From the NCBI RefSeq assembly GCF_013791765.1, contig NZ_VMTC01000112.1: a stretch of DNA of 64,000 nucleotides. One strand, given 5' to 3'. The notes below the pieces were generated by a model that was not told the origin of the DNA, made no database searches, and saw only the letters and a list, made by a program, of their open reading frames with translations. Positions 10,026-64,000 of this stretch are shown here, piece by piece. The stretch comes from Rhodoferax sp. (lineage in GTDB: Bacteria; Pseudomonadota; Gammaproteobacteria; Burkholderiales; Burkholderiaceae_C). The stretch's first letter is position 1. Each line of letters opens with the position of its first letter. The position numbers and the translations under genes were made by a program.

Positions 10026-11480
10026 TCAGCATTCTTCAGCCCAGCAATAACCGTCACGCGCGATCATGGCGCTGGACGCACTCGGCCCCCAAGTGCCGGC
10101 CGCGTACAGGCGGGGGCCCTGGGCGTCGTTTTGCCAGTGATCCAGAATGGGTTCGACCCAGCGCCAGGCTTCTTCCTGCTCGTCACTGCGCACAAACAGG
10201 TTCAGGCGCCCGTCGATGACATCCAGCAGCAGGCGTTCATAGGCGCCAACGCGCCCGGAGCCAAAGCGCGTGTCAAAGTCAAGATCAAGTTGCACCGGCG
10301 ACAGGGTCTGGGAGTTGCGCCGGTTGCTTTGCCCCTGCGCCAACAGGTGCAGTTCCAGCCCGTCCTTGGGCTGCAGGTTGATCACCAGCCGATTGGCATC
10401 GCCAATTTGCGAATTGAAGATGGCATGTGGCGTTGGGCGAAAGTTCACCACAATGCGGGCGTCGCGCCCGGCCAGGCGCTTGCCGGTGCGGATGTAAAAG
10501 GGCACGCCAGCCCAGCGCCAGTTCGAGATTTCAGTGCGCAGCGCGACAAAGGTCTCGGTCCGGCTGTGTGGGTCAACCCCTGGCTCGTCGCGGTAGGCTG
10601 CCACGGGTGCGCCGTCGATGGAGCCCGCTGCGTACTGACCGCGTATTACGTCCTGCGCGAGCGATTCGGCGCTCCAGGGTTTGAGCGAGCGCAGCACCTT
10701 GAGCTTTTCGTCGCGAATGGCATCGGCATGGGTGTTGATGGGCGGCTCCATGCCAATGGCGCACAGCAACTGCAGCGCGTGGTTTTGCACCATGTCGCGC
10801 AGCGCGCCAGTGGTCTCGTAAAAGGCACCGCGAGTCTCCACACCCAATTCTTCAGCAATCGTGATCTGGATATTGGCAATGTGCTCGCGCCGCCACAAGG
10901 GCTCAAACAGCGCATTGCCAAAGCGCAGCGCAAACAGGTTTTGCACCGAGGGCTTGCCCAGGTAGTGGTCGATGCGAAAAATATGCTTCTCGCCAAACAC
11001 CTGGCTGACGGTGTGGTTGATGGCGCGGTTGCTGGCAAGATCATGGCCCAGCGGCTTTTCCAGCACCACGCGGGTTTGCGGCGTATTCAGGCCACAAACA
11101 GCCAACTGCTCGCACACGGTGGTGAACAGCGCGGGTGCGGTGGCAACGTACATCACCACGGTGTCGGCCGGGCGCTCGGCCAGTTTGCCCACCAGACGGG
11201 CGTAGTCTGCGGGGTGGGACAAATCCATCTGCACGAATTCAAGCAGCGTCGCGAACCGGCAGAACTCTTCTTGGCTGGGGCGCTTGGCCAACTCCACCTG
11301 GTCGAAGCGCGCACAAATCTGGGCCCGGTACTGCTCTTTGCTGAGGTCGTCGCGGCCCACGCCAATGATGCGGCCATCCGCTGGCAGCGTGCCATGGCGA
11401 AAGGCTTGAAACAGCGCCGGCATCAACTTGCGCCAGGCGAGGTCGCCAGTGCCGCCAAACAAAACAAGGTCAAAACTCAT
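10026..11480 (-). CDS. zwf: Glucose-6-phosphate 1-dehydrogenase, 484 aa
   Basis: LVLFGGTGDLAWRKLMPALF NADP-binding N-terminus and the RIDHYLGK active-site motif. Confidence 0.95.
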   Translation of the reverse strand: MSFDLVLFGGTGDLAWRKLMPALFQAFRHGTLPADGRIIGVGRDDLSKEQYRAQICARFDQVELAKRPSQEEFCRFATLLEFVQMDLSHPADYARLVGKLAERPADTVVMYVATAPALFTTVCEQLAVCGLNTPQTRVVLEKPLGHDLASNRAINHTVSQVFGEKHIFRIDHYLGKPSVQNLFALRFGNALFEPLWRREHIANIQITIAEELGVETRGAFYETTGALRDMVQNHALQLLCAIGMEPPINTHADAIRDEKLKVLRSLKPWSAESLAQDVIRGQYAAGSIDGAPVAAYRDEPGVDPHSRTETFVALRTEISNWRWAGVPFYIRTGKRLAGRDARIVVNFRPTPHAIFNSQIGDANRLVINLQPKDGLELHLLAQGQSNRRNSQTLSPVQLDLDFDTRFGSGRVGAYERLLLDVIDGRLNLFVRSDEQEEAWRWVEPILDHWQNDAQGPRLYAAGTWGPSASSAMIARDGYCWAEEC

Positions 11481-25933: not shown

Positions 25934-27844
25934 TCAGCTTTCCCGATTTGCCGTGGGCCAGGAGCGGACGCAGTTGCGGCCGTCATGCTTGGCCTGATAG
26001 AGCGCTTTGTCCGCCTGGGCCAATAGCGCTTGTGGGCTCAGGTATTGGTTGGGTATGCCACTGGCCACGCCAAAGCTGGCGGTAACACGAATCGTGCGCC
26101 CTTCAAATGGGATAGCAAGTTTTTCAATGTCTGCGCGGAATCCCTCGGCCAGTGCCATTGAATCCTTCATGCTGCTGTCAATGAGCAGCATGACAAATTC
26201 TTCACCACCATAACGGGCCAGGACATCACCGACACGTTGAATTCGAGGCCGCATCAGCCCGGCCAAGGCGCGCAGGCAAGCATCACCGCCCAGGTGGCCG
26301 TAAGTGTCGTTAACCAGCTTGAAGTGATCAAGATCAATCATGACTACCGAAAGCGAACTTTTGGCTCGGTCCGCTCTGCGATGTTCCGCGGCCAGGGCGC
26401 TGTCAAAGAACGCGCGGTTGCTGATTTGGGTGAGCCCGTCCACGCTGGACAAGCGTTGCAACTGATCGTTGGCCAGCTGGAGTTGATCCAGCGTGAGGTT
26501 CAGGTCATTGGTGCGTGCCGTGACCCGTTGTTCCAGCTCGCGGTTTGCCTCTTCTTTTGTCTTGAGCAGCGCCTCCTGCGCGGAGCGTGCCCAGCGCTCA
26601 TGGCCAAGTGCCACCGCCTGCGCATTGATCCTGAGCGTACGATCATGGTTGATCCGGTCAGTCAGTGTGAACGACAGAAACAGAACCAGCAGGACAATGC
26701 CAATCTGGGAGGCATTTTCGGTCCAGATGTTGGACGGGACCAAGCCAAATTTGCCGGCATTCAGAACGCTTAGGCTAATCAGCACGGTGGTCCAGGCGAT
26801 GCAGTAATAGCGCGCAAATTTGGCGCCGCGCCACCAGCGCCAGTAACCCAGCGCCAATGCCGTCAGGCAAATGGGAATGGTGAACGCGGCGCCTACACGC
26901 ACTGTCCAGCTGTAAGGTAAAACAAAAGTCAGCGCAACCAGCAAGGCGCTTGCGATGACCAGCGCCCGCGTCAGGTAATGCGCTGGCCTGGAAAACGCGC
27001 TCAGCCGAAGAAAGCTCCCGGCAAACAGACTGGCGAACAACTCTGAACTGGCCACGAAGGTTGAGATGGCAATGCTGTTCCAGCGTACTGCGGCCGGCCA
27101 GACATAGGCAAAGGCGTAGCCGTTCAAGCTTACGTGAAAGAATAGGTAGCTCGCCACAAATCCAATGTAATAGAGGTAGTTGACGTCACGGGTTGAAAAG
27201 TAGACGAACAGGTTGTAGAAGATCATGATTAACAAGATGCCAATCACAAGACCCTGCAACAATTTGTCATCATCGTTCGCTTCGTAAAAACGGGTTGGAT
27301 CCCAGATTCGAAAAGGCGCCTCGATCGTGCCAGATGAGGCCAGACGGATGTAGATCAAATTGGCCCCAGGCGCCAGATTCAGGGGCATGACAAAATTCTG
27401 GTGTCGAACAACGCGCTGTGCAAAGGGCATTTCATCGCCCAAGCGGTAGCTGGTTTTGAGTTGGCCAGCCGTGTAGTGGTACAACTGCACATCGTCAATG
27501 AACGGTATCGGCAATTCAATGAAGCGGGCGGCGTCTTGCTGACCGAGGTTGTCGATCTGGAAGCGAAACCAGTAAGCGTCGTTGGTGAATCCAAAATTGG
27601 GCGATCGACGGGTGATGGTCTGCCACACTTTTGCCGGTGCCATGACCTGATCTGGCGCCAACGCTCTGGTGCTGTCGACCAGCAGGCCCATGTGGGATTC
27701 AACGTCGATTCGCCCGGGTGTCTGCGCCGACACCTCAAAGACTGGAAAACTGGAGTCTGGTGCGATCGGCGATGCGTTCAGCGCGGCGCTAGCCAGGCAC
27801 AGTAGGCTTGCCAATATGTAAAGGACAACGGCTTTCAAATTCAA
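25934..27844 (-). CDS. 7TMR-DISM sensor diguanylate cyclase (extracellular DISMED2 domain, 7 TM helices, GGDEF), about 636 aa
   Basis: YWFRFQIDN... extracellular domain, seven hydrophobic helices, a coiled coil, then GGDEF with an intact RYGGEEF A-site and RVGD (RxxD) I-site five residues upstream. I prefer the TTG 27844 start (GGAGA 9 nt upstream, giving the signal-like M-NLKAVVLYILASLLCLASA). The track start 28045 would overlap dnaX and the SRP-RNA motif. ATG 27961 is an alternative. Confidence 0.8.
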   Translation of the reverse strand: MNLKAVVLYILASLLCLASAALNASPIAPDSSFPVFEVSAQTPGRIDVESHMGLLVDSTRALAPDQVMAPAKVWQTITRRSPNFGFTNDAYWFRFQIDNLGQQDAARFIELPIPFIDDVQLYHYTAGQLKTSYRLGDEMPFAQRVVRHQNFVMPLNLAPGANLIYIRLASSGTIEAPFRIWDPTRFYEANDDDKLLQGLVIGILLIMIFYNLFVYFSTRDVNYLYYIGFVASYLFFHVSLNGYAFAYVWPAAVRWNSIAISTFVASSELFASLFAGSFLRLSAFSRPAHYLTRALVIASALLVALTFVLPYSWTVRVGAAFTIPICLTALALGYWRWWRGAKFARYYCIAWTTVLISLSVLNAGKFGLVPSNIWTENASQIGIVLLVLFLSFTLTDRINHDRTLRINAQAVALGHERWARSAQEALLKTKEEANRELEQRVTARTNDLNLTLDQLQLANDQLQRLSSVDGLTQISNRAFFDSALAAEHRRADRAKSSLSVVMIDLDHFKLVNDTYGHLGGDACLRALAGLMRPRIQRVGDVLARYGGEEFVMLLIDSSMKDSMALAEGFRADIEKLAIPFEGRTIRVTASFGVASGIPNQYLSPQALLAQADKALYQAKHDGRNCVRSWPTANRES

Positions 27845-27887
27845 GAGCAGAATTCTCCAGGGTTGTACTTTGGAATGAGGTTGACGA

Positions 27888-27980
27888 GCCTTGACCCCGG
27901 CACTGGCTTCACAGTTAGGGCTGCTTGGTTCCCCATCTGACCCGGTTGGCCGCTTCACCATGCGGGAAGGCCCGTCAAGA
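27888..27980 (-). ncRNA. ffs: Probable signal recognition particle RNA (4.5S, ffs); ends approximate
   Basis: The minus strand at 27943-27918 reads GGGUCAGAUGGGGAACCAAGCAGCCC. The E. coli 4.5S domain IV is GGUCAGGUCCGGAAGGAAGCAGCC. The GGAA tetraloop and both conserved loop strands (UCAG../AGCAG) are the same, and the closing stem covaries (UGG/CCA instead of UCC/GGA). The outer stem CUUGAC...GUCAAG bounds about 90 nt. Confidence 0.5.
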
Positions 27981-28050
27981 GAAATTATATGGCAGAGTGG
28001 CTGCTTCGGTTTTCTTGGCTGGCACTGGTCGCACCTTAGAATCAAGCCCC

Positions 28051-52281: not shown

Positions 52282-52392
52282 GGTTCATCTCCATTTTTGT
52301 GGATAACGCCGCTTGGAGCGCTGCGCGATCGGGGCTGGTGTTGCCCGTGTATCATGCCCTACCGAACCACCCGCCGTAAAGGAATCGAAGCC

Positions 52393-52911
52393 ATGGAAAC
52401 GATGCAAAAGAAGCCCGCCAACACCTTTCAGTCGGGCACCCCTGTCGCCAAAACCGTGGTCGATGGCGGTCAATACCTCACGCTACGCCTCGGTGGTGAA
52501 GAATACGCCATCGATATCCTGCGCGTGCAGGAAATTCGCTCTTATGAAGAACCCACCCGTATGGTCAATGCGCCCTCTTTCATCAAGGGTGTGGTTAATC
52601 TGCGTGGCGTCATTGTGCCGATTGTCGATTTGCGCCTGAAGCTCAATATCGACAAGGTCGAGTACAACGAATTCACGGTGGTCATCATCTTGAATGTGCG
52701 TGGTACCGTCATCGGCGCTGTGGTGGACTCGGTTTCGGATGTGGTCACTTTGACCTCGCAGTCCATCAAGCCTGCACCCCAGTTCGACACCGCCATTGAC
52801 TCCCGCTTCATTACCGGCCTGGCTAATATTGGCGATCGCATGCTGATTGTGATGAACATGGAAGCATTGATGAGCAATGCCGAGATGGGCATGCTGGCGG
52901 CTGTCGCCTGA
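52393..52911 (+). CDS. cheW: Chemotaxis coupling protein CheW, 172 aa (orphan)
   Basis: ATG 52393. QYLTLRLGGEEYAIDILRVQEIR...IKGVVNLRGVIVPIVDLR. The track ORF 51856.. is an upstream antisense-run extension. Confidence 0.88.
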   Translation: METMQKKPANTFQSGTPVAKTVVDGGQYLTLRLGGEEYAIDILRVQEIRSYEEPTRMVNAPSFIKGVVNLRGVIVPIVDLRLKLNIDKVEYNEFTVVIILNVRGTVIGAVVDSVSDVVTLTSQSIKPAPQFDTAIDSRFITGLANIGDRMLIVMNMEALMSNAEMGMLAAVA

Positions 52912-52963: not shown

Positions 52964-53040
52964 GCGGCTGTAGCTCAGTTGGATAGAGTACTTGGCTACG
53001 AACCAAGGGGTCGTGGGTTCAATTCCTGCCAGCCGCACCA
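52964..53040 (+). tRNA. tRNA-Arg (anticodon ACG), 77 nt with encoded CCA
   Basis: GCGGCTGTAGCTCAGTTGGATAGAGTACTTGGCTACGAACCAAGGGGTCGTGGGTTCAATTCCTGCCAGCCGCACCA. Acceptor stem GCGGCTG/CAGCCGC, anticodon loop CTACGAA. Confidence 0.93.
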
Positions 53041-53050
53041 GTAAAGACAA

Positions 53051-53084
53051 GGGTTAGTACGTTAGCGCGTACTAACCCTTTTGT
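53051..53084 (+). terminator. Rho-independent terminator after tRNA-Arg
   Basis: GGGTTAGTACG-TTAGCG-CGTACTAACCC is an 11-bp stem followed by TTTTGT. Confidence 0.75.
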
Positions 53085-53407
53085 CCGTCTAAGACCCAGA
53101 CCTGACTCGGCGTCAATGCAGTGTCTAGAAGTCGGGCCGGCCGTGGGGGTTGGTGCGTGATTTATGAGCACTGCAGCAGAAACGGTGCTCCGCTTGCTCA
53201 GTTGACATTCATCGGCGTGTTCTGTGTCACTGGTTCATAAGTGGCACGTCTGGATTGGCTCCGCTTTTGTTTCAAGAACTCGCGTCAGTAGCCTCCATGC
53301 CGAGCCTGTGATCTTCTTCTTTGAAAAGCAGCTCCTTCGACGAAAATGCCTTTTGGATTGAGCGACAAAGGAGTCAAGAGTTTGTTGTGATCTCTTGCAA
53401 CCCATTC

Positions 53408-53424
53408 GCTGAATTCAATTCAGC
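53408..53424. promoter_or_regulatory. Perfect 17-bp palindrome in the AT-rich leader of the giant gene (possible operator)
   Basis: GCTGAATT-C-AATTCAGC, about 140 nt upstream of ATG 53563. No cognate regulator is identifiable. Confidence 0.2.
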
Positions 53425-53562
53425 CAAGCTTCTATACACCTTTTTTCATTTTTTGTCTTTGATGGCACTCCTGGGCAATAGCAGGTATTATTCACAATTG
53501 CGACAATTTGTATCTTTTCGCGGTGAAAAAATAATGTTGTTGAGCAATTGAGGGGTAAAGAC

Positions 53563-56500
53563 ATGAAGGCAGTAAAAAGAACCGTGGCTTCGCGAATTCG
53601 TGATGCGTTGCGTCGTGATGCGTTTCGGATTGAGCCTTTGGAGCCGCGTGTCTTGCTTTCGGCAGACCCTATCTTTGCGCCAATGATGGCAGTGCTGGCG
53701 CCAGATCGCACTGATATCCAAAGTATCACCGAAGCCTACGCTGCAGCGCAAGCCTCAAGTAGCCCGTCCATCTCCGTGCCGTTGATGGCCCGCCTGCTCT
53801 CCAGTCCTGCCGCCAATAGCTCGGCACAGACATTTGCAGTGGATGCGGTCTTGTTTGACTTGGGGCAAATGTCTTTGCAAGCGGGTTTTTTGGATACGTC
53901 TTTGCGCGTTGCTGCCAATGAGGTGTTGGGTGGTAGCGGTTCGTTTAACGTTGATTTATTTAATACTGGATTGGTCAGTCCCGGATACTCCCCCGGCGTG
54001 CAAGACGTTGCTAGTTTCACCCAAGATGCCAGTGGAACGCTGCTGATTGAGCTTGGTGGAAGCACGGCGGGCACTGGCGACGGCCATTACGATCAAATTA
54101 ACATCAGTGGCGCCGCTGTTTTGGGCGGGACTTTGAATGTGGCGTTGTATGGCGGGTACAAGCCGCAAGATGGAGAAACGTTCACCGTCATGAACTACGG
54201 TTCTGTTACCGGTAAGTTTGACGTGGGTTCTGGCTTGCTTAAGACAGGCGATGGCTTGTTCTTTGAGGTCACTCAGGGTGCGACCAGTCTGGTCTTAACT
54301 GCGCACACCATAGATCCGTCACTTGGCTATGTGCTGGACGTGCTGGACGGTGAGCCGTCTGACCAGATCGGGCAGTGGCTCAACTTCAACTATTTTCAGG
54401 ATATTGCCCCGGTTGCCTTCGCCGGTAGTCTCAATCTGGGTGGCAATCTTACGGCCCAAGGCCAATTCACCCTGGCCTATAACGCCGATGAGAGTTTCAC
54501 GCCAATCGGCGGCAGCGCACTGAACACGAATGTCTGGAGCCTGAGCGCAAGCAATGTTGATGCATTTTTGGGAGTTTCCGGTCAAGGCCTGGCACTCGGT
54601 GGTCTGGACCTAAATCTGGCTTTTGTGCAGGTTGACACTGCGGGTTATGGCTGGGTCTTGGGCCAGGGACTCATCGACACGGCAACTGTCAGTGGCTTGA
54701 CCGGGGTGAGCCTGCAAGGGACCAACCTTGCGCTAGACATCAACTGGGGCTATGGCAATTTGCCAAGCGGCGGCGCTAACAGTTCGTTGCTGGACCTGAG
54801 CTTGAGCCCTATTACAGTGGGCAGCGCCACCTTCAATTCGAACGGCGCGACCGGCCCCTACTTGTTGGCCTCCGGCACACTGGCGGGCTCGGTAGCTGAT
54901 GTCACCCTAAACGCCACGGTGGGGGTGTCGGTGCTGGGCGACTCCTTTGTCATGGCAGGCAAAAACGTCACTGCTAGCCTGGCTGCGGGCGGTGTTGCGG
55001 TGGGTGTCAGCAATGGCGCTTTTGGCTTTTTGGCCGACAGTTCCGGTATGGCGTTTGAAGCAACCGGTGCTTTGGCTTTGACAGGTGGCGGGTTTGCCAG
55101 CGTCAGTGCCGATGCCGTCAGAGTGGTCATCAACCGCACAGGTACCTTGCAGACCGGGCGCGTGCTCAGCTTTGCCGGCGACTACAGCTACACCTTCGCA
55201 GACGTAGTCGCCTCCAGTGGCTTGCAGGCTGTTGGAGTTGTCGGTTTGCAGGCATCACTGGGCGCGGGCTTGAACGTCAGCGGCAATTTTTCGTTTGAAA
55301 AGGACGGCAGCACCAACACCATGCGCGTGGTCGCCCAGGGCGCATCAGCCCAGGTGGCGGCAGGCAGTTTCAAGGTTGGTGTACAGCATGCCAATTTAGG
55401 GCTGACCATCTCCGCAGCGGGTCGCGTACTGGAAGCCAGCGGCGCTATTAGTGCCAATTTGGGCGAAGAAATGACGCTTTCCGCCAGCCAGGTGACGCTG
55501 CGTTTGAACGAAACCACCGATGACGCAAGCGGCGCTGTCATTTCAGCTGCAGGCCAGAGCTACACTTTTAGCAGCGCGATGCAGGCAGGCATGCATGAGT
55601 TGTCCATCGTCGGCGGAGAGCTGTCGTTGGCCGGTTTTGTTCAGGCATCTGGTTCGCTGGCGGTACGCTGGGCGGGGCAGCCTGCTAGCCTTAGTCTGGC
55701 TGACGGTACCACACGCTCGGTCAACCAAATTTGGGTTGCTGGCACTGGCTTGGCGGCCGCTGTTGGCCTGAATGCCGGCAAGCCCGAATTTGTGGGTTTC
55801 AGCGCGACGGGGCTTGAGTTCGTGCTCGGCCTGTTTTCAGACACTGCCAACACTGCAAATCAATGGACCAGCCTGTCAGGCACCATGGGTGGTTCAAAGC
55901 TTTCCGGATTGACCGGCGTTACCCTGGCCGCCAATGCGCTGGCCTTGACCTACAACTCCGCTTCCAGTGGCCAACGCGTGGCGGATTTCACGGGTAGCAA
56001 TGCCAAGGGCATCACCTTAGCCGGCAAGACCTTGAATTTGTCTGCCGATGGCAGCAAAGGTGAACTGTTGCAGGCCAGTGGACAACTCAATCTTGATTTA
56101 CTCGGATTTGTTCAAGTCAGCGGTGATTTTGCGTTGGAGAGCAAGACGCAGGCTGTGACACTGGCCGACGGCAGTGATGTGACCACGCAAATGCTGACCA
56201 TTGGCGCTAAGGGTGTGGCCGCTTTCGTTGGTCTGAATGGTGGTCAAACGGAAGAAATGGGCTTGCGTGTCAGCGATGCTGAGTTTGGTTTTGTTGTCGC
56301 TAGCGACCAAGCAGACCCCGCGCGTCGTTGGGTCAGCCTGCAGGCGGTGGCTACTGCTGCCAGCATGCAGGGTGTCAGCGGTCTGAAGATGACTGCCTCG
56401 GATCTGCTCGTCAGTGTGAATCGGGCGGCTACCGATGGCTCGGTCATTGACTACCAGGCTGCGCCTTTGGGTGTGGTTACGGATAGTGGCGGGACCGAGT

Positions 56501-59500
56501 TGCTCCTGGACATGGACGGCAGCAAGGGCGCACTTACTCAGGTGCAAGTGGGCCGCGCCACGTTGGCCGTGTCTGACTATATTTATGTTAGTGGTGGCTT
56601 CTACATGGAAATGGCTGACACCATTGCGGTAGATGTAGCAACCGGTTTACCAGCCACTTACCCTGCCGGCATGAATGCGGCTTTGCAGACCGGTTTGGGC
56701 AAGGTGGACGGCTTGTCGGCTGACCACAGCCGGATTGAAGATTTGCAGGTTAAACCACTGACGCTGAGCTTTACCGATGTGGATGTGTTTGCGGGCATCG
56801 GGCCCTACTTCGTTGATGCCAACGGCAATGGACTCATGGATGTCGGCGAAGTCGTCAACCCGGACCGCATGGGCATCACGCTGGACAACATTGATCTGGC
56901 CCTGGTTCTGATGGACTCGACCCTGCTGGCCGACCCTGACTCCGTCATACCCAAGTTTTACGCCCTGCAGCTGGACTGGAAAACGCCCTTGGATGTGGAT
57001 TGGGACTACTTCAAGTTCCAGATTGATGACTTGCAAGTGCAGGCCAACCAAGGTGGCCAATGGAAAGGTGCGCCCACGCTTTCCACGCCGTACATCGACT
57101 TCGCGAGCAGCTTTGGTGCTACCGGCTATGAGATACCGACTTCGGGCGACTCCGTTTTTCTCAACTACGACAAGTCTTTTGTTGGCGTCTCGATTGGCCA
57201 CGCATTACTCAATGTGGGTAACTTCTTCCAGGTTGAGGGCAGCTTTGCTCTGGAGAAGGTCGGTGGCCAGAAGGTCGACGTGGTCACTGGATTGCCCAGC
57301 AACCTCACCGGCAGTCCGGCCGCGAGCTTGGCCTCCGAACTGACAGCACTCAAACAAAAGGGTTACCTGTCTGCGAATAATGCATTGCTAAGCGACTTGC
57401 CGGTGGACATGCTCACCATTGGCGCATCGGACGTGACCATCACCATTGGCAATCCCGGCGACCCGCTGCTCGTGCTTGACAATATTGATGTGGCCTTCAG
57501 CACCATGAAGGCCACCGCAGATGCCGACCCGAGCCGAATCATTCCGCGTTTGTATGGCGCCAAGGCTTTCTGGGCCACACCGCTGGATGTGGACTGGGGT
57601 TTCATGCAACTCAAGGTTGACGACCTTCAAGTGCAAATGAACAAGGGTGCCAATTGGCAAGGCACTCAGTTATCGCCTTACCTTGACTATCAGTCGAGCT
57701 TTGGCCCGAGCGGCCTTAACGTAGCCACGGGTGGCGCCCCGATTTCCCTGGACTTCAACCGCTCCATGTTTGGCGTGTCGGTGGGCCATGCCCTGGTCAA
57801 GATTGATGACTTTTTTCACCTGGAAGGTGGCTTTGCCATTGAGAAGTCCAGCAGCGTTCAGGTCGACATTGCCACCGGTTTCAATAGCCGCCTGGAAGGC
57901 GGAACTGCGCTCAATTCGTTGGTCGGCAAGGGGCTTTCCGTAGACGGTACCCGAATTGACGATCTGACGATGAATGCCGTTACGCTGGGCTTTTCCAATG
58001 TCAAGCTATTTGCTGGGTCTGGTCCCTATTTTGTCGATAGCAATGATGACGGTGTCAGTGATAGCACCAGCTCGGATGCCGTCGGATTGGTGGTAGAGAA
58101 CCTCGACCTCGGCCTTGTAATTTACACCGCAGCCGATGCCTCGGTCACCTTACCCAAGCTTTGGGCGCTCAAAGCAACAGCGGATCAAGCGGCCTTTGTT
58201 GGCGTTGACTTTCTGACGCTCAGCGCCGAAGGTGTCACCGTGGTTGCGAATCAGGGAGCGCTCTGGAGTGGGAGTACGGTCAAGCCCTACGTGGATTTTG
58301 CGAGTACTTACGGGGCTGATGGCCTGTCGATTTCCACCGGCGGTGACCCCATGGCCCTGGCCTACCAGAGTGGCTACTTTGGTGTGCAAGTGGCCAAGGC
58401 GACTTTGCGGATCGATGAATTTGTCTATGTCCAGGGCGCCTTCAGTTTCGAAAAAGGCCAGCGCCAGCGCGTCACGGTCGATACCGGCATCACCGTGACT
58501 GATATTGGTATGGCGGCCACCATCGCCAGTCTGTCCACTTCCGCGGGTCAAGGGGCTGTGGTGTCGGCCGATTGGTCCACTGTGTCCAATCTGGAAGTCG
58601 AGGCCATGACCTTTGGCATGAATAATGTCAACGTTTTTGTTGGCTATGGCGTGCCTGATTTTGACTCAGTCAAACCGGTTAAAGACCAGGCTGGCGTGTT
58701 CGGAGTGGCCATCAAAGACGTGGATTTGGCCTTGGCCATTCTCACCCCTACCGCCAAATCACTCAACTTGCCAAAATTTACTGCACTCAAAGCGACCGCC
58801 AGTGAATTCGTGGTGGCCGGCGGTGAAGGTATTTTTGAGTTGTCTGGCAATGACATTGCAGTGAACCTGAACTGGGGTTCAGCCTGGCAAGCCGCCCCGG
58901 CCAAGCGTGCCACCGTCGATTTTGTGGAAAGCTTTGGTGCGGGTGGTTTGCTCGTGCCTACGGGTGCAACCCCGATGGCTTTGAATTTCACCGAGACACT
59001 GATAGAAGCCAAGGTATCGAGCGCCTTGTTGGCCATTTCGGAATTTGTTCACGTATCGGGCGACTTTTCGTTCCGCAAGAGCGGCACCACCGAGACCACT
59101 GTCAAGCAGGGGCTTAACAGTATTGCGGGCGTCAAGGTCAACGCCATTGACATCGGCGCCAACAATGTTCACGCGTTTGTCGGTTTGAATGGCCCCACCA
59201 GTGATGTCAACCTTGACGGTGTCATCAATACCGACGACTTGACCGACCAAGCCATTGGCCTCAAAGTAAACGACTTCGACTTTGGCCTGTCGATATTGGT
59301 CGCCCAGGCAGACATCACCAAGCCCACCATAGCCCAGGGCACAAAATTTACGGCACTCAAAGCCCACGCCAATGACATCGCCTTTGTGGGCTTCGGTGAC
59401 TTTATCGAATTTGATCTTAACGACGTCAGCGTCGCTATCAACCAGGGTAGCGTTGCTGGCATGGTGGCTGACTTCACCCAGGGCGGCTCGGTGGCGGGTC

Positions 59501-62500
59501 GCACCGTTCAAACCGGCGGTGTTCCGATTCTGCTGGACTTCAATTCTGAACTGATTGAGGCTTCGGTCGGACTGGCGACCGCCAATGTCGCTGGTATTGT
59601 GAGTTTGCAAGGCGGCTTTGCGTTCCAGAAACGCACGCTTGACCGTATCGGGTTTAACCTGGCAGGTATGGAGGTGATCGCACCGGCGGACGCACTCGTG
59701 GTTGCCGGCATGGATGTGCAGGCATTCGCTGGCTTCAACGGCCCATACAAGACGCTCAGCAAAGACCCCGCTACCGGCGCGTTGATTGCCAGCGAACCCA
59801 ATACCGATGCAGTGGGCTTCGCCATCGACAACCTCGATTTTGTTTTGGCCATGCTGACACCGTCCAAGGCCTCAGGTTTTGCGGTCCCCGGTGTAAATTT
59901 CTACAGCCTGTATGCCAGCGCCGACAAGGCCGGCCTGGTCGGCACTGACCCCTACCTGACGCTTGAGGGTACTGATGTCGTGCTCAAGCTCAATGGCGCG
60001 GTGGCTGGTGATTACCCCATTCCAAGCTTATACGTGGACTACACCGAGCTGCCCGGTGGCAAGCTGACCGTGCCGGTGGGCACGGCAGGTAACAATATCA
60101 GCCTGGACTACAACTCCAACCTGTTAGGCCTGCAGATCAATGCCAAGCTGGGCATTTTTGATTTGTTTGATATCAGCTACGACTTCAGTTTCGACTTTGA
60201 GATGCCCAGCATCAACCTGGGCAACCTGGGCTTGCCCAGCGTTACGCTGCCCAATTTTGATTTGCTGGACTTCAAGCTGCCGTCCTTGCAGTTGATGGAG
60301 TTTGAGCTGCCGTCCCTGCTCGACCTGCGCTTTGAAATTCCCAACTTCACTCTACCGACACTGCCGGGTGTGGACTGGGTTGCTCTGCTGGAGTTGCCCG
60401 GTTTCGATGTCAACTTGCCCACTTTCACCCTGCCGGCCTGGAGCAAGCTGGTCTTGAACTGGCCCAAGCTCGCCCTGGATTTCCCGTCAGTGGATTTCCC
60501 TGCGTTGCCCGATTTCCCGTCCTTGAACTTGTTTGGTTTGCCAAACATCGACTTGAGCCTGCCAGACTTCAGCCTTGGCATACCCAAGTTTGACATTGGC
60601 AGTCTGCGGGCGCTTTACGCAGCCTGGCCCGATTTGAGTCTGCAGTTTCCTGACATCGCTTTCCCGGCGCTGCCGGCGTTTCCGGACTTGTCGTTCGGAT
60701 TGGGCTTTGGCATGCCCGTGTTTGATTTGCCAAACCTGAATTTGCCTGATTTGCGCGCACTCTACGCGGCTTGGGCAAATATTCAAGTCAACTTCCCGGA
60801 TTTCAACTTGCCCGCCCTGCCGGCATTCCCTGATTTCGACATCTTTAATTTGCCGTCTCTCAACTGGGATGCGCCAAGAATTGATTTGTCGGCCTTGAGC
60901 AATCTGGTGCTGAACTGGCCTGACTTCAAACTCCAGTTTCCCGATATTGTTTTCCCAGAGCTGAGCCTGCCAGATTTCGGTCTGAGCATGCCAAGCTTCG
61001 ATTTGCCCACCGGCTTCATGCCGACCATCAGTCTGAAGGGCTTGACCGACCTTCTGCCGGAAATGCCCGATGTGGGCTTCCTCAAAGACGCGTTCAACTT
61101 CATCAGCAATCTCGACTTGTCCATCGGCTTTGACATCAACCTGGGCGTGATCGTTCTGGGCAAGATATCGTTACCCGACGTCAACCTGAGTTTGGGAGAT
61201 TTTGTACACCTCAGCGGTGACTTTGAGCTCAACCTGGGCAAGACCTTTAACGGCACCATGTACACCGGTCTGCCCGCTGACCTGAGCGTCCTGGAGTCCG
61301 CGCTGGGTAGCACTGCCGACACCATCATTGATGGCATCAAGAGCCTGGGTGGTATTTCTGCGGATTATTCACGCGTCAGCAATGTTGATTTCAAGGGCCT
61401 CACGCTGGGCGGCTCTGATATTTACGCCTTCATTGGCGCGGGCACACCTGATTTCACCCGGCCATTGTCAGAGCAAGCCGGTCTGACCGGTTTTGGTCTT
61501 GAAAATCTCGACCTGGGCCTTGGCATCTTTAAAGCCGATCTGCCGGACTTTTTCAAGGCGCAGAATTTTTATTCGCTGACGGCACATGCCGATCAACTTG
61601 GCACCTACGGCTTTGGCGACATCCTCAAACTCACCGCGCAAGACATCACGCTGCAAGTGAACGCAGGCGGGGAGTTGTTTGGTGGTGTCATGCGCTCACG
61701 CGCTGACTTCAAGACAACATTCCCCGCCGTGGTAGATACGGCGACGCCGACCAACAGTAAGCCGGTCGGTTACAAAATTGCCACGGGTGGCACGCCGGTT
61801 TACCTCGATTTTGGCGGCGAAGACATCATTGGACTGGACATTGGCATGGCCGAGATCCAGGTGTCCGAGTTCTTGAGCTTGCGCGGCTCGCTCGCTTTCC
61901 GCCAGGGAGAGCGTTTCACCGTGGACGTCAACCCAGGCGGGCTCTCCACGCTGCTGTCTGAACTGGGCACTGGCCCAACCATTCCCATGCAGGTTGAGGC
62001 GATGACTCTGGGCGGCGCCAACCTGACCGGTTTCGCCGGCGTGGGCGGCCCCTATCGCTATGGTGTAGACGCAAATGGCGACGGTCTGTTGGACAGCATC
62101 AATGACGGCGCGATCGGTTTGGCGATTGATGATGTGGACTTCGGTCTGGCCATCATGACGCCGACCTTGCTGACGGCCAGCCCCTCGCTCAAGGCCAATG
62201 CGCCGAAGTTCATTTCGGTCAAAGCCAGCGTGGGCGATGCGTTCCTCACCGGCATTGATGCGAGCTTGCTCGACGTCCAGGCGCATGACGTTGAGGTCAA
62301 TATCAACACCTTTGTCGTGCCCGGTGGCCCCATCCCCAATGCCGCCTTGCAGCTGATCGGCCCACCGTCGATCAACTACCAAACCAGTACCAGCTTCAAG
62401 AATTCGCCAGAAGATAAAAATGGCAACGGCGTTCTGGACGCAGGTGAAGACCGCAATGGCGACAACCACCTCGCTGCCTATGGCTTTGCAGTTCCGGCGG

Positions 62501-64000
62501 GCGGCAATAACGCGGTCATCATTGATTTCAATGAAGAAATCATACAGGCCAAGGTGGGTTACGCCCAAATTAACTTGGCCGGCTTTGTGCAGTTATCTGC
62601 CTCGATGGCATTCACCAAAAAAGGCTCGGAAACCGTCACGCTTTCCAATGGTGAAGTGACAGAAGTCAGCACATTGGCGATTGGCATCAATGATGCCTAC
62701 GGGTTTGTAGGTGTCGGCGCCTACTGGCGTGACACCAGTGCGGTAGGCACGCCAGGGTATGGCCGCATCGAAGAAACGGACACACCCGACACCAGTGCCG
62801 TTGGCCTGGCCATTGAAAACCTCGACTTGGGCGTCGTGGTGGCGCGCGAGCTCAAGATTGGCTTAGGCGGACTGACCGTTGGCGTCTATCTGGCCGCTCA
62901 AGCCAATATTGACACCATTGGATTGGTCGGCATCGACGACGTCACACTGCAGGCCACAGGTCTGCAGTTGGACCTCAATACCGGTGCGCGCACCGTGATT
63001 TCTTCGGGTTACGTCAAAGACGCGGCTACTGGCGCAGTCTCTTTTGACAATGCCAGCGCCACCTTTGCGCTCACCACCATCGACTTTTCCAAAAGCAACT
63101 GGAAAGACATGTCACTGGCCGTCAATCAAGACAGCGACCAGACCAATGATGTCGTGAACGCCGGTTATGCGATTCCTACCGGAAATCCGTCTGAGCCGAT
63201 CGTTCTTGACTATTCGGAGCAACTGCTTCGCATCTTTGGTCAAGCCAAACTCGACATGTTTGGCTTGGTCAAAATGGACGGTGTGCTGGACTTCCAGTTC
63301 AGCCAGAGTGAGGGATTGACGGTGTTTGCGGACGTCTCAGCCCGCATCGGCGCTGGTTCTTTTGCTATTGAAAGAGATGCGACTGGGCTGCTTGTCATCG
63401 GCAAGCGCAATGGCACGGTGGGTGCCGCGATGCGACTCGAACTCGATGGTGGCTTTGATCTGGGTAGTCTGGCCAGTTTGGACGTGAAGTTTGACCTGAC
63501 GCTCAACACCTTCGGTGAAACGATTGTTTACGACATCCCCGATGCCTTCAAAGCCGCGTTAGATACCGACACCAATTTGGCAACTGCACCTGCTCAGTTC
63601 CCCAACTGGCAGTACACCATCAGCGCCACGCCAACTGGAAAACCCAGTTGGACGGGCATGTATGTCCAGTTGTTGGGCCAAGGCAAACTTGACATGCTGG
63701 ACGGGGCTCTCAAGCTCAATGGAAATTTCGGAATCATCGTATCCGAAACCGGTATGGAACTAGGGGTCACTGCGACTCTGGATTTGCCCTTGCTCAATCC
63801 TTTGGATGTCACTGGCACCCTGGGCATTGTGCAGGCCGGCATCTACGGCAGTCTGCAAGTTGGTTCGCCAGGGCAAAAGCTGTTGGACATTGCCGGTGCA
63901 TTCTCGATTGAAGCCAGCGTCCTGCTGCAAATCAACACCACCAGTAGCGCTCAGTCGGTCAAGACACTCAAGCTTGATGCCAATAAGGCCATCCTGCGCG
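53563..64000 (+). CDS. Giant repetitive LEPR-x-LL-motif protein (putative secreted or surface protein), 5' part only: >3,479 codons, open to the window end
   Basis: GAGGGG lies 7 nt upstream of ATG 53563. I read the frame codon by codon from 53563 to about 60200 without meeting a stop. Beyond that I read it less rigorously, and no stop-terminated ORF in this frame appears in the track. The N-terminus is MKAVKRTVASRIRDALRRDAFRIEPLEPRVLLSADP. The body is Gly/Ala/Thr/Asp-rich repeated modules. Confidence 0.85.
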   Translation, partial: MKAVKRTVASRIRDALRRDAFRIEPLEPRVLLSADPIFAPMMAVLAPDRTDIQSITEAYAAAQASSSPSISVPLMARLLSSPAANSSAQTFAVDAVLFDLGQMSLQAGFLDTSLRVAANEVLGGSGSFNVDLFNTGLVSPGYSPGVQDVASFTQDASGTLLIELGGSTAGTGDGHYDQINISGAAVLGGTLNVALYGGYKPQDGETFTVMNYGSVTGKFDVGSGLLKTGDGLFFEVTQGATSLVLTAHTIDPSLGYVLDVLDGEPSDQIGQWLNFNYFQDIAPVAFAGSLNLGGNLTAQGQFTLAYNADESFTPIGGSALNTNVWSLSASNVDAFLGVSGQGLALGGLDLNLAFVQVDTAGYGWVLGQGLIDTATVSGLTGVSLQGTNLALDINWGYGNLPSGGANSSLLDLSLSPITVGSATFNSNGATGPYLLASGTLAGSVADVTLNATVGVSVLGDSFVMAGKNVTASLAAGGVAVGVSNGAFGFLADSSGMAFEATGALALTGGGFASVSADAVRVVINRTGTLQTGRVLSFAGDYSYTFADVVASSGLQAVGVVGLQASLGAGLNVSGNFSFEKDGSTNTMRVVAQGASAQVAAGSFKVGVQHANLGLTISAAGRVLEASGAISANLGEEMTLSASQVTLRLNETTDDASGAVISAAGQSYTFSSAMQAGMHELSIVGGELSLAGFVQASGSLAVRWAGQPASLSLADGTTRSVNQIWVAGTGLAAAVGLNAGKPEFVGFSATGLEFVLGLFSDTANTANQWTSLSGTMGGSKLSGLTGVTLAANALALTYNSASSGQRVADFTGSNAKGITLAGKTLNLSADGSKGELLQASGQLNLDLLGFVQVSGDFALESKTQAVTLADGSDVTTQMLTIGAKGVAAFVGLNGGQTEEMGLRVSDAEFGFVVASDQADPARRWVSLQAVATAASMQGVSGLKMTASDLLVSVNRAATDGSVIDYQAAPLGVVTDSGGTELLLDMDGSKGALTQVQVGRATLAVSDYIYVSGGFYMEMADTIAVDVATGLPATYPAGMNAALQTGLGKVDGLSADHSRIEDLQVKPLTLSFTDVDVFAGIGPYFVDANGNGLMDVGEVVNPDRMGITLDNIDLALVLMDSTLLADPDSVIPKFYALQLDWKTPLDVDWDYFKFQIDDLQVQANQGGQWKGAPTLSTPYIDFASSFGATGYEIPTSGDSVFLNYDKSFVGVSIGHALLNVGNFFQVEGSFALEKVGGQKVDVVTGLPSNLTGSPAASLASELTALKQKGYLSANNALLSDLPVDMLTIGASDVTITIGNPGDPLLVLDNIDVAFSTMKATADADPSRIIPRLYGAKAFWATPLDVDWGFMQLKVDDLQVQMNKGANWQGTQLSPYLDYQSSFGPSGLNVATGGAPISLDFNRSMFGVSVGHALVKIDDFFHLEGGFAIEKSSSVQVDIATGFNSRLEGGTALNSLVGKGLSVDGTRIDDLTMNAVTLGFSNVKLFAGSGPYFVDSNDDGVSDSTSSDAVGLVVENLDLGLVIYTAADASVTLPKLWALKATADQAAFVGVDFLTLSAEGVTVVANQGALWSGSTVKPYVDFASTYGADGLSISTGGDPMALAYQSGYFGVQVAKATLRIDEFVYVQGAFSFEKGQRQRVTVDTGITVTDIGMAATIASLSTSAGQGAVVSADWSTVSNLEVEAMTFGMNNVNVFVGYGVPDFDSVKPVKDQAGVFGVAIKDVDLALAILTPTAKSLNLPKFTALKATASEFVVAGGEGIFELSGNDIAVNLNWGSAWQAAPAKRATVDFVESFGAGGLLVPTGATPMALNFTETLIEAKVSSALLAISEFVHVSGDFSFRKSGTTETTVKQGLNSIAGVKVNAIDIGANNVHAFVGLNGPTSDVNLDGVINTDDLTDQAIGLKVNDFDFGLSILVAQADITKPTIAQGTKFTALKAHANDIAFVGFGDFIEFDLNDVSVAINQGSVAGMVADFTQGGSVAGRTVQTGGVPILLDFNSELIEASVGLATANVAGIVSLQGGFAFQKRTLDRIGFNLAGMEVIAPADALVVAGMDVQAFAGFNGPYKTLSKDPATGALIASEPNTDAVGFAIDNLDFVLAMLTPSKASGFAVPGVNFYSLYASADKAGLVGTDPYLTLEGTDVVLKLNGAVAGDYPIPSLYVDYTELPGGKLTVPVGTAGNNISLDYNSNLLGLQINAKLGIFDLFDISYDFSFDFEMPSINLGNLGLPSVTLPNFDLLDFKLPSLQLMEFELPSLLDLRFEIPNFTLPTLPGVDWVALLELPGFDVNLPTFTLPAWSKLVLNWPKLALDFPSVDFPALPDFPSLNLFGLPNIDLSLPDFSLGIPKFDIGSLRALYAAWPDLSLQFPDIAFPALPAFPDLSFGLGFGMPVFDLPNLNLPDLRALYAAWANIQVNFPDFNLPALPAFPDFDIFNLPSLNWDAPRIDLSALSNLVLNWPDFKLQFPDIVFPELSLPDFGLSMPSFDLPTGFMPTISLKGLTDLLPEMPDVGFLKDAFNFISNLDLSIGFDINLGVIVLGKISLPDVNLSLGDFVHLSGDFELNLGKTFNGTMYTGLPADLSVLESALGSTADTIIDGIKSLGGISADYSRVSNVDFKGLTLGGSDIYAFIGAGTPDFTRPLSEQAGLTGFGLENLDLGLGIFKADLPDFFKAQNFYSLTAHADQLGTYGFGDILKLTAQDITLQVNAGGELFGGVMRSRADFKTTFPAVVDTATPTNSKPVGYKIATGGTPVYLDFGGEDIIGLDIGMAEIQVSEFLSLRGSLAFRQGERFTVDVNPGGLSTLLSELGTGPTIPMQVEAMTLGGANLTGFAGVGGPYRYGVDANGDGLLDSINDGAIGLAIDDVDFGLAIMTPTLLTASPSLKANAPKFISVKASVGDAFLTGIDASLLDVQAHDVEVNINTFVVPGGPIPNAALQLIGPPSINYQTSTSFKNSPEDKNGNGVLDAGEDRNGDNHLAAYGFAVPAGGNNAVIIDFNEEIIQAKVGYAQINLAGFVQLSASMAFTKKGSETVTLSNGEVTEVSTLAIGINDAYGFVGVGAYWRDTSAVGTPGYGRIEETDTPDTSAVGLAIENLDLGVVVARELKIGLGGLTVGVYLAAQANIDTIGLVGIDDVTLQATGLQLDLNTGARTVISSGYVKDAATGAVSFDNASATFALTTIDFSKSNWKDMSLAVNQDSDQTNDVVNAGYAIPTGNPSEPIVLDYSEQLLRIFGQAKLDMFGLVKMDGVLDFQFSQSEGLTVFADVSARIGAGSFAIERDATGLLVIGKRNGTVGAAMRLELDGGFDLGSLASLDVKFDLTLNTFGETIVYDIPDAFKAALDTDTNLATAPAQFPNWQYTISATPTGKPSWTGMYVQLLGQGKLDMLDGALKLNGNFGIIVSETGMELGVTATLDLPLLNPLDVTGTLGIVQAGIYGSLQVGSPGQKLLDIAGAFSIEASVLLQINTTSSAQSVKTLKLDANKAILR

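Follow-up and report, generated by a model that had tools for sequence, protein, structure and literature searches.

Few bacterial gene products are so poorly understood as the giant repeat proteins; assemblies break inside their genes and annotation records them as 'hypothetical, partial'. Here we describe such a gene on a 64,000-nucleotide stretch of contig NZ_VMTC01000112.1 (Rhodoferax sp., RefSeq assembly GCF_013791765.1; hereafter 'the window'). The reading frame that begins at position 53563 and is still open where the window ends amounts to no more than one third, at the 5′ end, of a gene of more than 34.6 kb in a Rhodoferax/Polaromonas-like bacterium of the Comamonadaceae, a lineage common in groundwater and freshwater. 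From its sequence, the product is best explained as a giant fibre protein that belongs to the LEPR-XLL class and is located outside the cell or attached to its surface. Giant secreted LEPR-XLL repeat proteins are already known as a class; what is undescribed is a module of approximately 208 residues, an all-beta unit that builds thousands of proteins across phyla yet has no counterpart in Pfam, NCBIfam or the PDB, and a candidate secretion system.

The LEPR-XLL motif is probably an N-terminal export leader, because in other bacteria giant proteins carrying this motif or a sister motif are encoded beside a conserved gene cassette, and this co-occurrence offers a testable answer to the question of what the motif is for. 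The cassette lacks the ATP-binding cassette (ABC) transporter of type I secretion, the place of which is taken by a putative leader-binding, protease and adaptor fusion protein, often with a SecA-like motor in addition. For the window's gene itself, we give about an even chance that LEPR-XLL is a leader recognised by this envelope-spanning cassette of TolC, two membrane-fusion proteins (MFPs) and a PqqD-M50-HlyD fusion. If true, this would represent a new mechanism for the passage of megadalton proteins through two membranes and an explanation for a named but functionless NCBI family, and the cassette is carried by tractable hosts, among them Escherichia coli (on IncF plasmids), Cupriavidus metallidurans CH34, Variovorax paradoxus and Mesorhizobium ciceri.

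The giant gene and its modular product

A sequence-only reading of the window had proposed that one frame runs open from ATG 53563 to position 64000 behind a GAGGGG Shine-Dalgarno sequence, and that the remaining open reading frames (ORFs) of this region are antisense or out of frame; all of this is confirmed. On translation, the plus-strand frame at 53563–63999 contains 3,479 codons and no stop, a run with a chance probability of approximately 1e-58 given the 3.8% or so of stop codons expected at the local base composition. The nearest in-frame stop on the 5′ side is TGA 53524, followed only by TTG 53548 and ATG 53563 as starts; GAGGGG occupies 53550–53555, spaced 7 nt from the ATG, and the Polaromonas orthologue starts at the equivalent methionine, where DNA similarity to the window also begins. 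Between 53.7 and 62.6 kb, all other ORFs of at least 100 amino acids (aa) run antisense or out of frame. The same locus was located, by exact look-up of the adjacent WS/DGAT protein, on NCBI assembly GCA_018899575.1 and on one contig each from JGI and ENA, all three being 100% identical to the window across the shared 21.5 kb. On these contigs the gene is called at 11,094, 11,087 and 11,533 aa respectively, and by coordinate arithmetic each call runs into its contig end (window-equivalent positions 86,843, 86,825 and 88,161); hence the gene is longer than 11,533 codons and 34.6 kb, and still unfinished. Extension of the contig, which the sequence-only reading had advised, thus carried the gene to 11,533 codons without reaching its stop codon, and two scans of metagenomes for sequence extending it in the source organism returned nothing. 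In all three independent assemblies the contig ends inside the gene, with no more than about 1.3 kb between the break points (window-equivalent 86.8–88.2 kb), and a Rhodoferax metagenome-assembled genome (MAG) contig likewise stops where, by arithmetic, its orthologue would continue. These shared break points suggest near-identical DNA repeats further along the gene; the part within the window contains no DNA tandem repeats.

The product has the LEPR-XLL motif that had been noticed from sequence. Residues 1–36 (53563–53670, plus strand, as for all segments of the gene given here) comprise a basic region with eight lysines or arginines, followed by FRIEPLEPRVLLSADP from residue 26, and are the proposed export leader; NCBIfam model NF012209 (LEPR-8K) matches residues 21–41 with 32.1 bits against a cut-off of 17. 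This is the sole NCBIfam match among the 3,479 residues, the N-terminal retention-module family included in that search, and there is none in Pfam, be it BIg, cadherin, VCBS, RTX or any other characterised adhesin family. That the basic N-terminus contains no classical Sec signal, as previously claimed, is also borne out: no signal or transmembrane segment was found, the Kyte-Doolittle mean reaching at most 1.64 in the first 80 residues (12-residue window, in a proline-containing stretch) and 1.62 over the whole product (19-residue window). The accompanying claim that adhesin signatures and RTX repeats are lacking stands for the part within the window and fails beyond it, since the orthologues possess an RTX block past the window end. 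The window product is without cysteine in 3,479 residues, has a pI of 4.18 and contains five DxNxDG-type loops.

AlphaFold2 predicts residues 1–128, the LEPR motif included, to be disordered; within these, residues 37–128 (53671–53946; pLDDT <50) are probably a flexible linker. Residues ~130–250 (53950–54312) form a confidently predicted beta-helix N-domain (pLDDT ~90) reminiscent of an autotransporter autochaperone or passenger cap. The best Foldseek matches of this domain are a metagenomic beta-helix domain (7jvi, E 4.8e-4) and the IcsA autochaperone (3ml3, probability 0.99, TM-score 0.41 on target; also 5ke1), and others are IgA1 protease and EspC; the TM-scores are low (0.2–0.41), and sequence searches of the PDB with the N-terminus gave nothing. 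From about residue 365 onwards, self-comparison and an iterated hidden Markov model (HMM) recognise 13 copies or part-copies of the ~208-aa module. Divergent copies, visible as self-repeats of about 150 aa, occupy residues 365–1000 (54655–56562), and six canonical all-beta modules follow at residues 1003–2194 (56569–60144), a DxNxDG-type calcium-loop motif being present in three of the six. Residues 2201–2545 (60163–61197) are an insert rich in leucine (20%), proline (12.5%), phenylalanine (11%) and aspartate (10%), with LP or FP at every fifth residue, which matches no family and is kept in Rhodoferax (77%) and Polaromonas (57%). Three to four more modules extend over residues 2544–3225 (61192–63237), and residues 3226–3479 (63238–63999) are the beginning of a 'post-module' region that is conserved family-wide.

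Structure prediction for a single module gave a confident all-beta unit (pLDDT 82.6, pTM 0.74) with strands of up to 23 residues, for which Foldseek found no fold match in the PDB or in the viral database BFVD; a module profile likewise matched no PDB sequence. Exhaustive HMMER searching of 1.84 billion representatives returned 5,808 clusters at E ≤ 1e-3, of which 253 reach E ≤ 1e-30; lengths of 5,000–7,900 aa are common, and contig ends truncate nearly all of these proteins. A word-index protein search, with two modules and with the distal stretch of the Polaromonas orthologue as queries, had given only four to five short fragments, and the rarity that this implied is overturned by the HMMER result; giant proteins are seemingly missing from that index, where few matches do not signify rarity. 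Module queries (tblastn) against closed plasmids found no match, and no plasmid-borne giant has the module. Some proteins (P0138 and P0022) combine the same module with classical hydrophobic signal peptides in place of LEPR-XLL; different lineages thus use the module with different routes of export.

When species-representative genomes were scanned, orthologues turned up in Rhodoferax, at 82% and 69% identity, and in Polaromonas, at 78% and 61%; the overall range of identity is 59–82%. The copy in Polaromonas sp. CG9_12 shares the N-terminus of the window product and runs for 6,393 codons without reaching a stop; orthologous stretches of 6,393, 6,996 and 6,029 residues contain no cysteine at all, and pI ranges from 4.2 to 4.7 across the window product and its orthologues. 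The RTX block of the Rhodoferax and Polaromonas orthologues (PF00353, 36.3 and 30.0 bits against a cut-off of 23, with the block scanned alone) lies ~350–480 residues beyond the point that corresponds to the window end. It is internal, being followed by ~2,850 or more residues. The orthologues also have, past the window end, beta-helix-like low-complexity stretches and '...AQKxAVAxxLGY' repeats that match neither Pfam nor NCBIfam. The window's protein very probably leaves the cell in an unfolded state and acquires its fold outside, with Ca2+.

Among wider relatives, 39 intact N-termini (those of the window and Polaromonas included) share a basic stretch and then, 9–41 residues from the initiating methionine, the motif, in the common design [F/L]x[V/I/L][E/D]x-LE[P/Q/E]R[V/I/L]LL-SADP. 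The annotation pipeline PGAP names close relatives in Rhodoferax, Methylococcaceae and Verrucomicrobiota "LEPR-XLL domain-containing protein, partial". Twelve long relatives, ~45,000 residues together, contain almost no Pfam domain and no retention, BIg, cadherin or VCBS domain; HemolysinCabind was found in one of the twelve and in the relative P0033. Complete 3′ ends are few: the gene for P0073 has a true stop with the contig ending 81 nt further, and that for P0058 is followed only by glmS. P0058, P0060 and P0144 share an acidic-aromatic C-terminal tail ('...EYEYWxE...').

A gene cassette beside giant proteins

P0060 and P0144 are distant members of the module family with true C-termini, encoded at loci L016 and L017, and the same five genes follow both: a TolC-family outer-membrane factor, a short MFP, a long MFP, a 716-aa fusion of M50 and HlyD-type domains, and a 653-aa SecA-like ATPase. 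The latter has the DEAD, preprotein-binding and P-loop domains of SecA, without the C-terminal third (the C-terminal scaffold and wing domains). In these giants the window's module recurs 9–16 times, and both are collinear with the orthologues' post-module region, as are the LEPR-bearing relatives P0033 and P0098; at L016 (~9.9–10.0 kb) two adjacent giant ORFs of 5,060 and 4,873 aa are one gene with a frameshift inside a module. The fusion protein belongs to a large family of near-constant length (2,232 matches, 714–720 aa); it has a periplasmic HlyD-type domain and five to seven hydrophobic segments, and the HExxH motif is invariant in all 13 of the 13 sequences compared.

The connection with LEPR-XLL came from a tblastn search of closed plasmids with the distal part of the orthologues, which yielded a complete "LEPR-XLL domain-containing protein" of 4,033 aa in Thalassospira marina, with the gene order DUF3467, long MFP, fusion, short MFP and TolC behind it. 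The Thalassospira fusion in turn matched 74 plasmid records, and 17 records among the plasmid matches to the cassette fusion are from E. coli. A giant gene lies directly upstream of the cassette on the same strand in 13 of the 14 neighbourhoods compared, the components are homologous one for one, and none of the 13 giant-linked neighbourhoods includes an ABC transporter in the cassette. The 13 giants are those of L016 (at least 9,933 aa), L017 (at least 5,252), Thalassospira (4,033), Alisedimentitalea (8,148), Variovorax paradoxus (16,239), Cupriavidus metallidurans CH34 (at least 2,762), Caballeronia (at least 2,717), Rhodobacteraceae M382 (at least 3,331), Pseudosulfitobacter (12,918), Methylosinus (8,847), Mesorhizobium (10,518), Azospirillum (4,330) and an E. 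coli IncF plasmid (4,459). These cassette-adjacent giants have 0–3 cysteines and a pI of ~4.05, and their C-terminal tails are not conserved, those outside L016 and L017 being unrelated to the acidic-aromatic tail. The SecA-like gene is present in seven of the 14 loci and not within reach in the other seven, which rules it out as an obligatory part of the cassette.

Eight of the cassette-adjacent giants have readable N-termini. Four are canonical LEPR-XLL proteins: Thalassospira (28.6 bits) and Pseudosulfitobacter (32.6) by the NCBIfam LEPR-XLL model, and Mesorhizobium (22.9) and Methylosinus (17.3) by a local motif HMM, for which the maximum among 2,250 shuffles was 6.9. Another two carry a sister motif, ALE[AS]Rx[ML]FD[AG]AA, after a basic stretch (ALEARYMFDAAA and ALESRQLFDGAA). 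The Thalassospira and Pseudosulfitobacter giants have only the motif in common with the window's protein, as would be expected of a portable targeting signal. The window product fits the profile of the cassette's neighbours, being giant, acidic, cysteine-free and without a Sec signal, with a basic stretch ahead of LEPR-XLL, and within the Comamonadaceae itself the cassette of Variovorax adjoins the 16,239-aa gene.

Several observations weigh against extending the association to the window's gene, or against the association itself. None of the cassette components is encoded in the 64-kb window, the 3′ flank of the giant gene lying outside every contig, and no single locus unites LEPR-XLL, the 208-aa module and the cassette; the giants of L016 and L017, which have module and cassette, have their N-termini cut off by the contigs. 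The 14 neighbourhoods were picked from a hit list and are a non-random sample. Two cassette-adjacent giants lack the motif, at annotated starts that are doubtful, and the PqqD-like N-terminus of the fusion scores 22.8 and 19.9 bits, below the Pfam cut-off of 23.4. In Methylococcaceae (L019–L021) the cassette stands without a giant or a SecA-like gene, with a 477-aa RTX/Peptidase_M10_C protein 7.5 kb away, which rules out that every copy is tied to a giant gene. Finally, the RTX repeats of the orthologues and a published Vibrio LEPR-XLL protein would suit a classical ABC-type system equally well.

From its domain content, the cassette as a whole would span the envelope: beside the TolC-family duct and the two MFPs, the inner-membrane fusion would combine a PqqD-like leader-binding segment, resembling a RiPP recognition element (RRE; RiPP, ribosomally synthesised and post-translationally modified peptide), with an M50 intramembrane metalloprotease (HExxH) and an HlyD-type periplasmic domain. 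Frequent companions are a short SecA-like ATPase and DUF3467 or SapC; an ABC transporter is not among them. How they act is a matter of speculation. The PqqD/RRE-like segment might bind the LEPR-XLL leader, the SecA-like motor, where present, might push the unfolded chain N-terminus first through the MFP/TolC duct, and the M50 site might remove the leader near LLSADP, whereupon the autochaperone-like beta-helix would emerge first and seed the folding of the modules. The N-terminus-first direction is suggested by the position of that beta-helix at the N-terminus behind a disordered leader. Taken as a whole, the proposition that LEPR-XLL is the leader of an undescribed ABC-independent, TolC-dependent secretion system for giant proteins, operating N-terminus first with M50 leader removal and with the window's gene as one substrate, is tentative, and we consider it possible rather than probable.

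Public annotation names both proteins inconsistently, and this has kept the cassette hidden. The fusion appears as 'PqqD family protein', 'biotin/lipoyl-binding protein', 'site-2 protease family protein', 'peptidase' or 'HlyD family...', and the SecA-like ATPase is mislabelled 'prepilin peptidase' or 'DEAD/DEAH box helicase' (L030, 15080–17104; L032, 14219–16135; L033, 14177–16138). Genes for SapC-family and DUF3467 proteins recur near the cassette (L026, 33558–34355; L030, 14266–15087; L022, 25458–25754; also L032 and L033), and SapC and TolC genes have been described beside giant genes of Chlorobium chlorochromatii (bioRxiv 10.64898/2026.03.19.712371). In V. paradoxus VAI-C (L025; CP063167.1, 19413–68132) the complete 16,239-aa product is annotated as a 'tandem-95 repeat protein' with one cysteine and a pI of 4.05, and the cassette is followed by a full set of type II secretion genes. 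On the IncF plasmid of E. coli 0H23 (NZ_CP081687.1; L035) the cassette stands behind a 4,459-aa Ig-like protein with the N-terminus RFALESRQLFDGAA. A LEPR-XLL giant, P0123, is encoded in a different Methylococcaceae MAG from the one in which the cassette stands alone.

Known systems and rival routes of export

Like other members of NF012209, the window's protein is very long and repetitive and carries the motif, above cut-off, at its very N-terminal end. All that defines the family is this motif of ~24 residues; it has no described function, and the bodies of its members are unrelated to one another. The sequence-only reading had stated that LEPR-XLL has no established function or export route. 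The literature is indeed almost silent, with two passing mentions of LEPR-XLL; among openly accessible publications, none was found that describes the cassette or assigns a role to the motif. Comparative genomics now provides a candidate in the cassette. In its logic of a short leader, RRE-like binder, HExxH protease, MFP and TolC, this cassette is akin to the leader-peptide-dependent exporters of bacteriocins and RiPPs (C39-peptidase ABC, PqqD/RRE and daptide-type M50 systems), but its putative substrates are of 4,000–16,000 aa and not peptides, it has no ABC domain, and its protease is fused to an HlyD-type domain. A SecA motor without the C-terminal scaffold and wing is also tied to giant proteins in Omnitrophota and Actinobacteria, where SecA-like domains of this kind occur inside the giants themselves (West-Roberts et al. 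2023, bioRxiv 10.1101/2023.11.21.568195). In the cassette, by contrast, the SecA-like protein is not a domain of the giant but the product of a separate gene of ~650 aa among TolC and MFP genes, in Proteobacteria and Campylobacterota-like contigs, and the window product has no transmembrane segments.

The most serious competitor to the cassette as the export route is classical type I secretion (T1SS), by which an RTX-type giant adhesin such as LapA, MpIBP or SiiE leaves C-terminus first through an ABC/MFP/TolC exporter, encoded downstream or elsewhere, that recognises a C-terminal signal; the LEPR-XLL end and the beta-helix would then emerge last, as a retention plug or anchor and not as a leader. 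We regard this as improbable, though well worth entertaining. It is the established route for megaproteins of this sort (review PMC8277102), and the window's protein resembles RTX giant adhesins (LapA, MpIBP, SiiE, FrhA) in size class, acidity, lack of cysteine, calcium-binding motifs, extender arrays, the Pfam-positive RTX block of its orthologues and a likely TolC-family exit duct; HemolysinCabind in P0033 and in one of the twelve long relatives adds to the resemblance, as does a LEPR-XLL protein described from Vibrio, in which RTX/serralysin domains are C-terminal (PMC10868602). Yet the orthologues' RTX block is internal and not C-terminal, the window product matches neither BIg, cadherin or VCBS nor a retention module, and the C-terminal tails of cassette-linked giants are unconserved, although T1SS signals are poorly conserved in any case. 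No ABC exporter is encoded in the 53 kb upstream of the gene or beside the 13 cassette-linked giants, four of them canonical LEPR-XLL proteins on closed replicons; LEPR-XLL giants adjoin instead the PqqD-M50-HlyD fusion, with or without the SecA-like protein, and their signal is apparently N-terminal. The autotransporter-like fold predicted for residues ~130–250, with its Foldseek matches to the IcsA autochaperone and passenger (3ml3, 5ke1), IgA1 protease and EspC, might alternatively indicate Sec-dependent two-partner secretion (TPS) or an autotransporter, that is, type V secretion (T5SS). This is very improbable: the similarity is modest, the domain is N-terminal here and not at the C-terminal end of a passenger, and the 3,479 residues include no signal peptide, transmembrane segment, known barrel, TPS domain or other T5SS match in Pfam or NCBIfam. 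A protein of more than 11,533 aa, moreover, exceeds known T5SS passengers.

The tRNA-Arg locus and its surroundings

The giant gene begins behind a tRNA-Arg(ACG) gene at 52964–53040 on the plus strand (ARAGORN; Rfam RF00005, 65.3 bits), a neighbour and not a part of it. Directly after the tRNA comes a terminator-like palindromic hairpin with a perfect 13-bp stem (53049–53080), within a 522-nt leader (53041–53562, plus strand) that has a weak sigma-70-like site at 53462–53491, ahead of the Shine-Dalgarno sequence, and matches no Rfam family or known riboswitch, the cyclic di-GMP (c-di-GMP) riboswitch included.

The position behind a tRNA and an AT-rich leader had been read as a sign of accessory DNA. 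The tRNA is where it was claimed to be; the AT-richness is only mild, with a GC content of 0.51 for 53–54 kb against 0.54–0.62 nearby. That the gene is a recently acquired island at tRNA-Arg is unlikely on balance. Its start 522 nt from the tRNA gene and the somewhat AT-richer leader would fit such an origin, and the Polaromonas orthologue, which has no tRNA upstream and lies beside unrelated upstream DNA, indicates that the position of the gene is not fixed within the family. However, this orthologue also lacks the tRNA adjacency itself, the gene's GC (0.56) and third-position GC (GC3, 0.66) are inside the range of its neighbours (given as 0.655–0.79), no integrase or mobility gene lies between tRNA and giant gene, the flanking genes are housekeeping genes, and orthologues are present in several Rhodoferax and Polaromonas genomes. 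Even less credible is the notion that the frame is an assembly artefact or a decaying pseudogene without a product, to which the break of every assembly inside the gene and a frameshift in one distant relative might point. The three independent assemblies agree perfectly over their common 21.5 kb, frames of more than 6,000 codons are open in three other genera or species at 59–82% protein identity, and the strict avoidance of cysteine is kept.

Upstream of the locus are c-di-GMP and chemotaxis genes, for a 7TMR-DISM GGDEF sensor and PilZ, HDOD and CheW proteins (25934–28045, ~43.7–44.5 kb and 52354–52911; L011). In LapA-type systems retention of the adhesin is under c-di-GMP control, and a link between these genes and the giant protein is circumstantial. 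The only efflux or secretion machinery in the upstream 53 kb, where no ABC/MFP/TolC secretion system was found, is a resistance-nodulation-division (RND) pump at 35.9–40.5 kb. Besides this pump and the signalling genes, the flank encodes an aminotransferase, a ROK protein, G6PD, PGI and transaldolase, GroES/EL, DnaX, SLT, MoeA/MobA/MoaA, an H+-PPase and a PPase, and the WS/DGAT protein.

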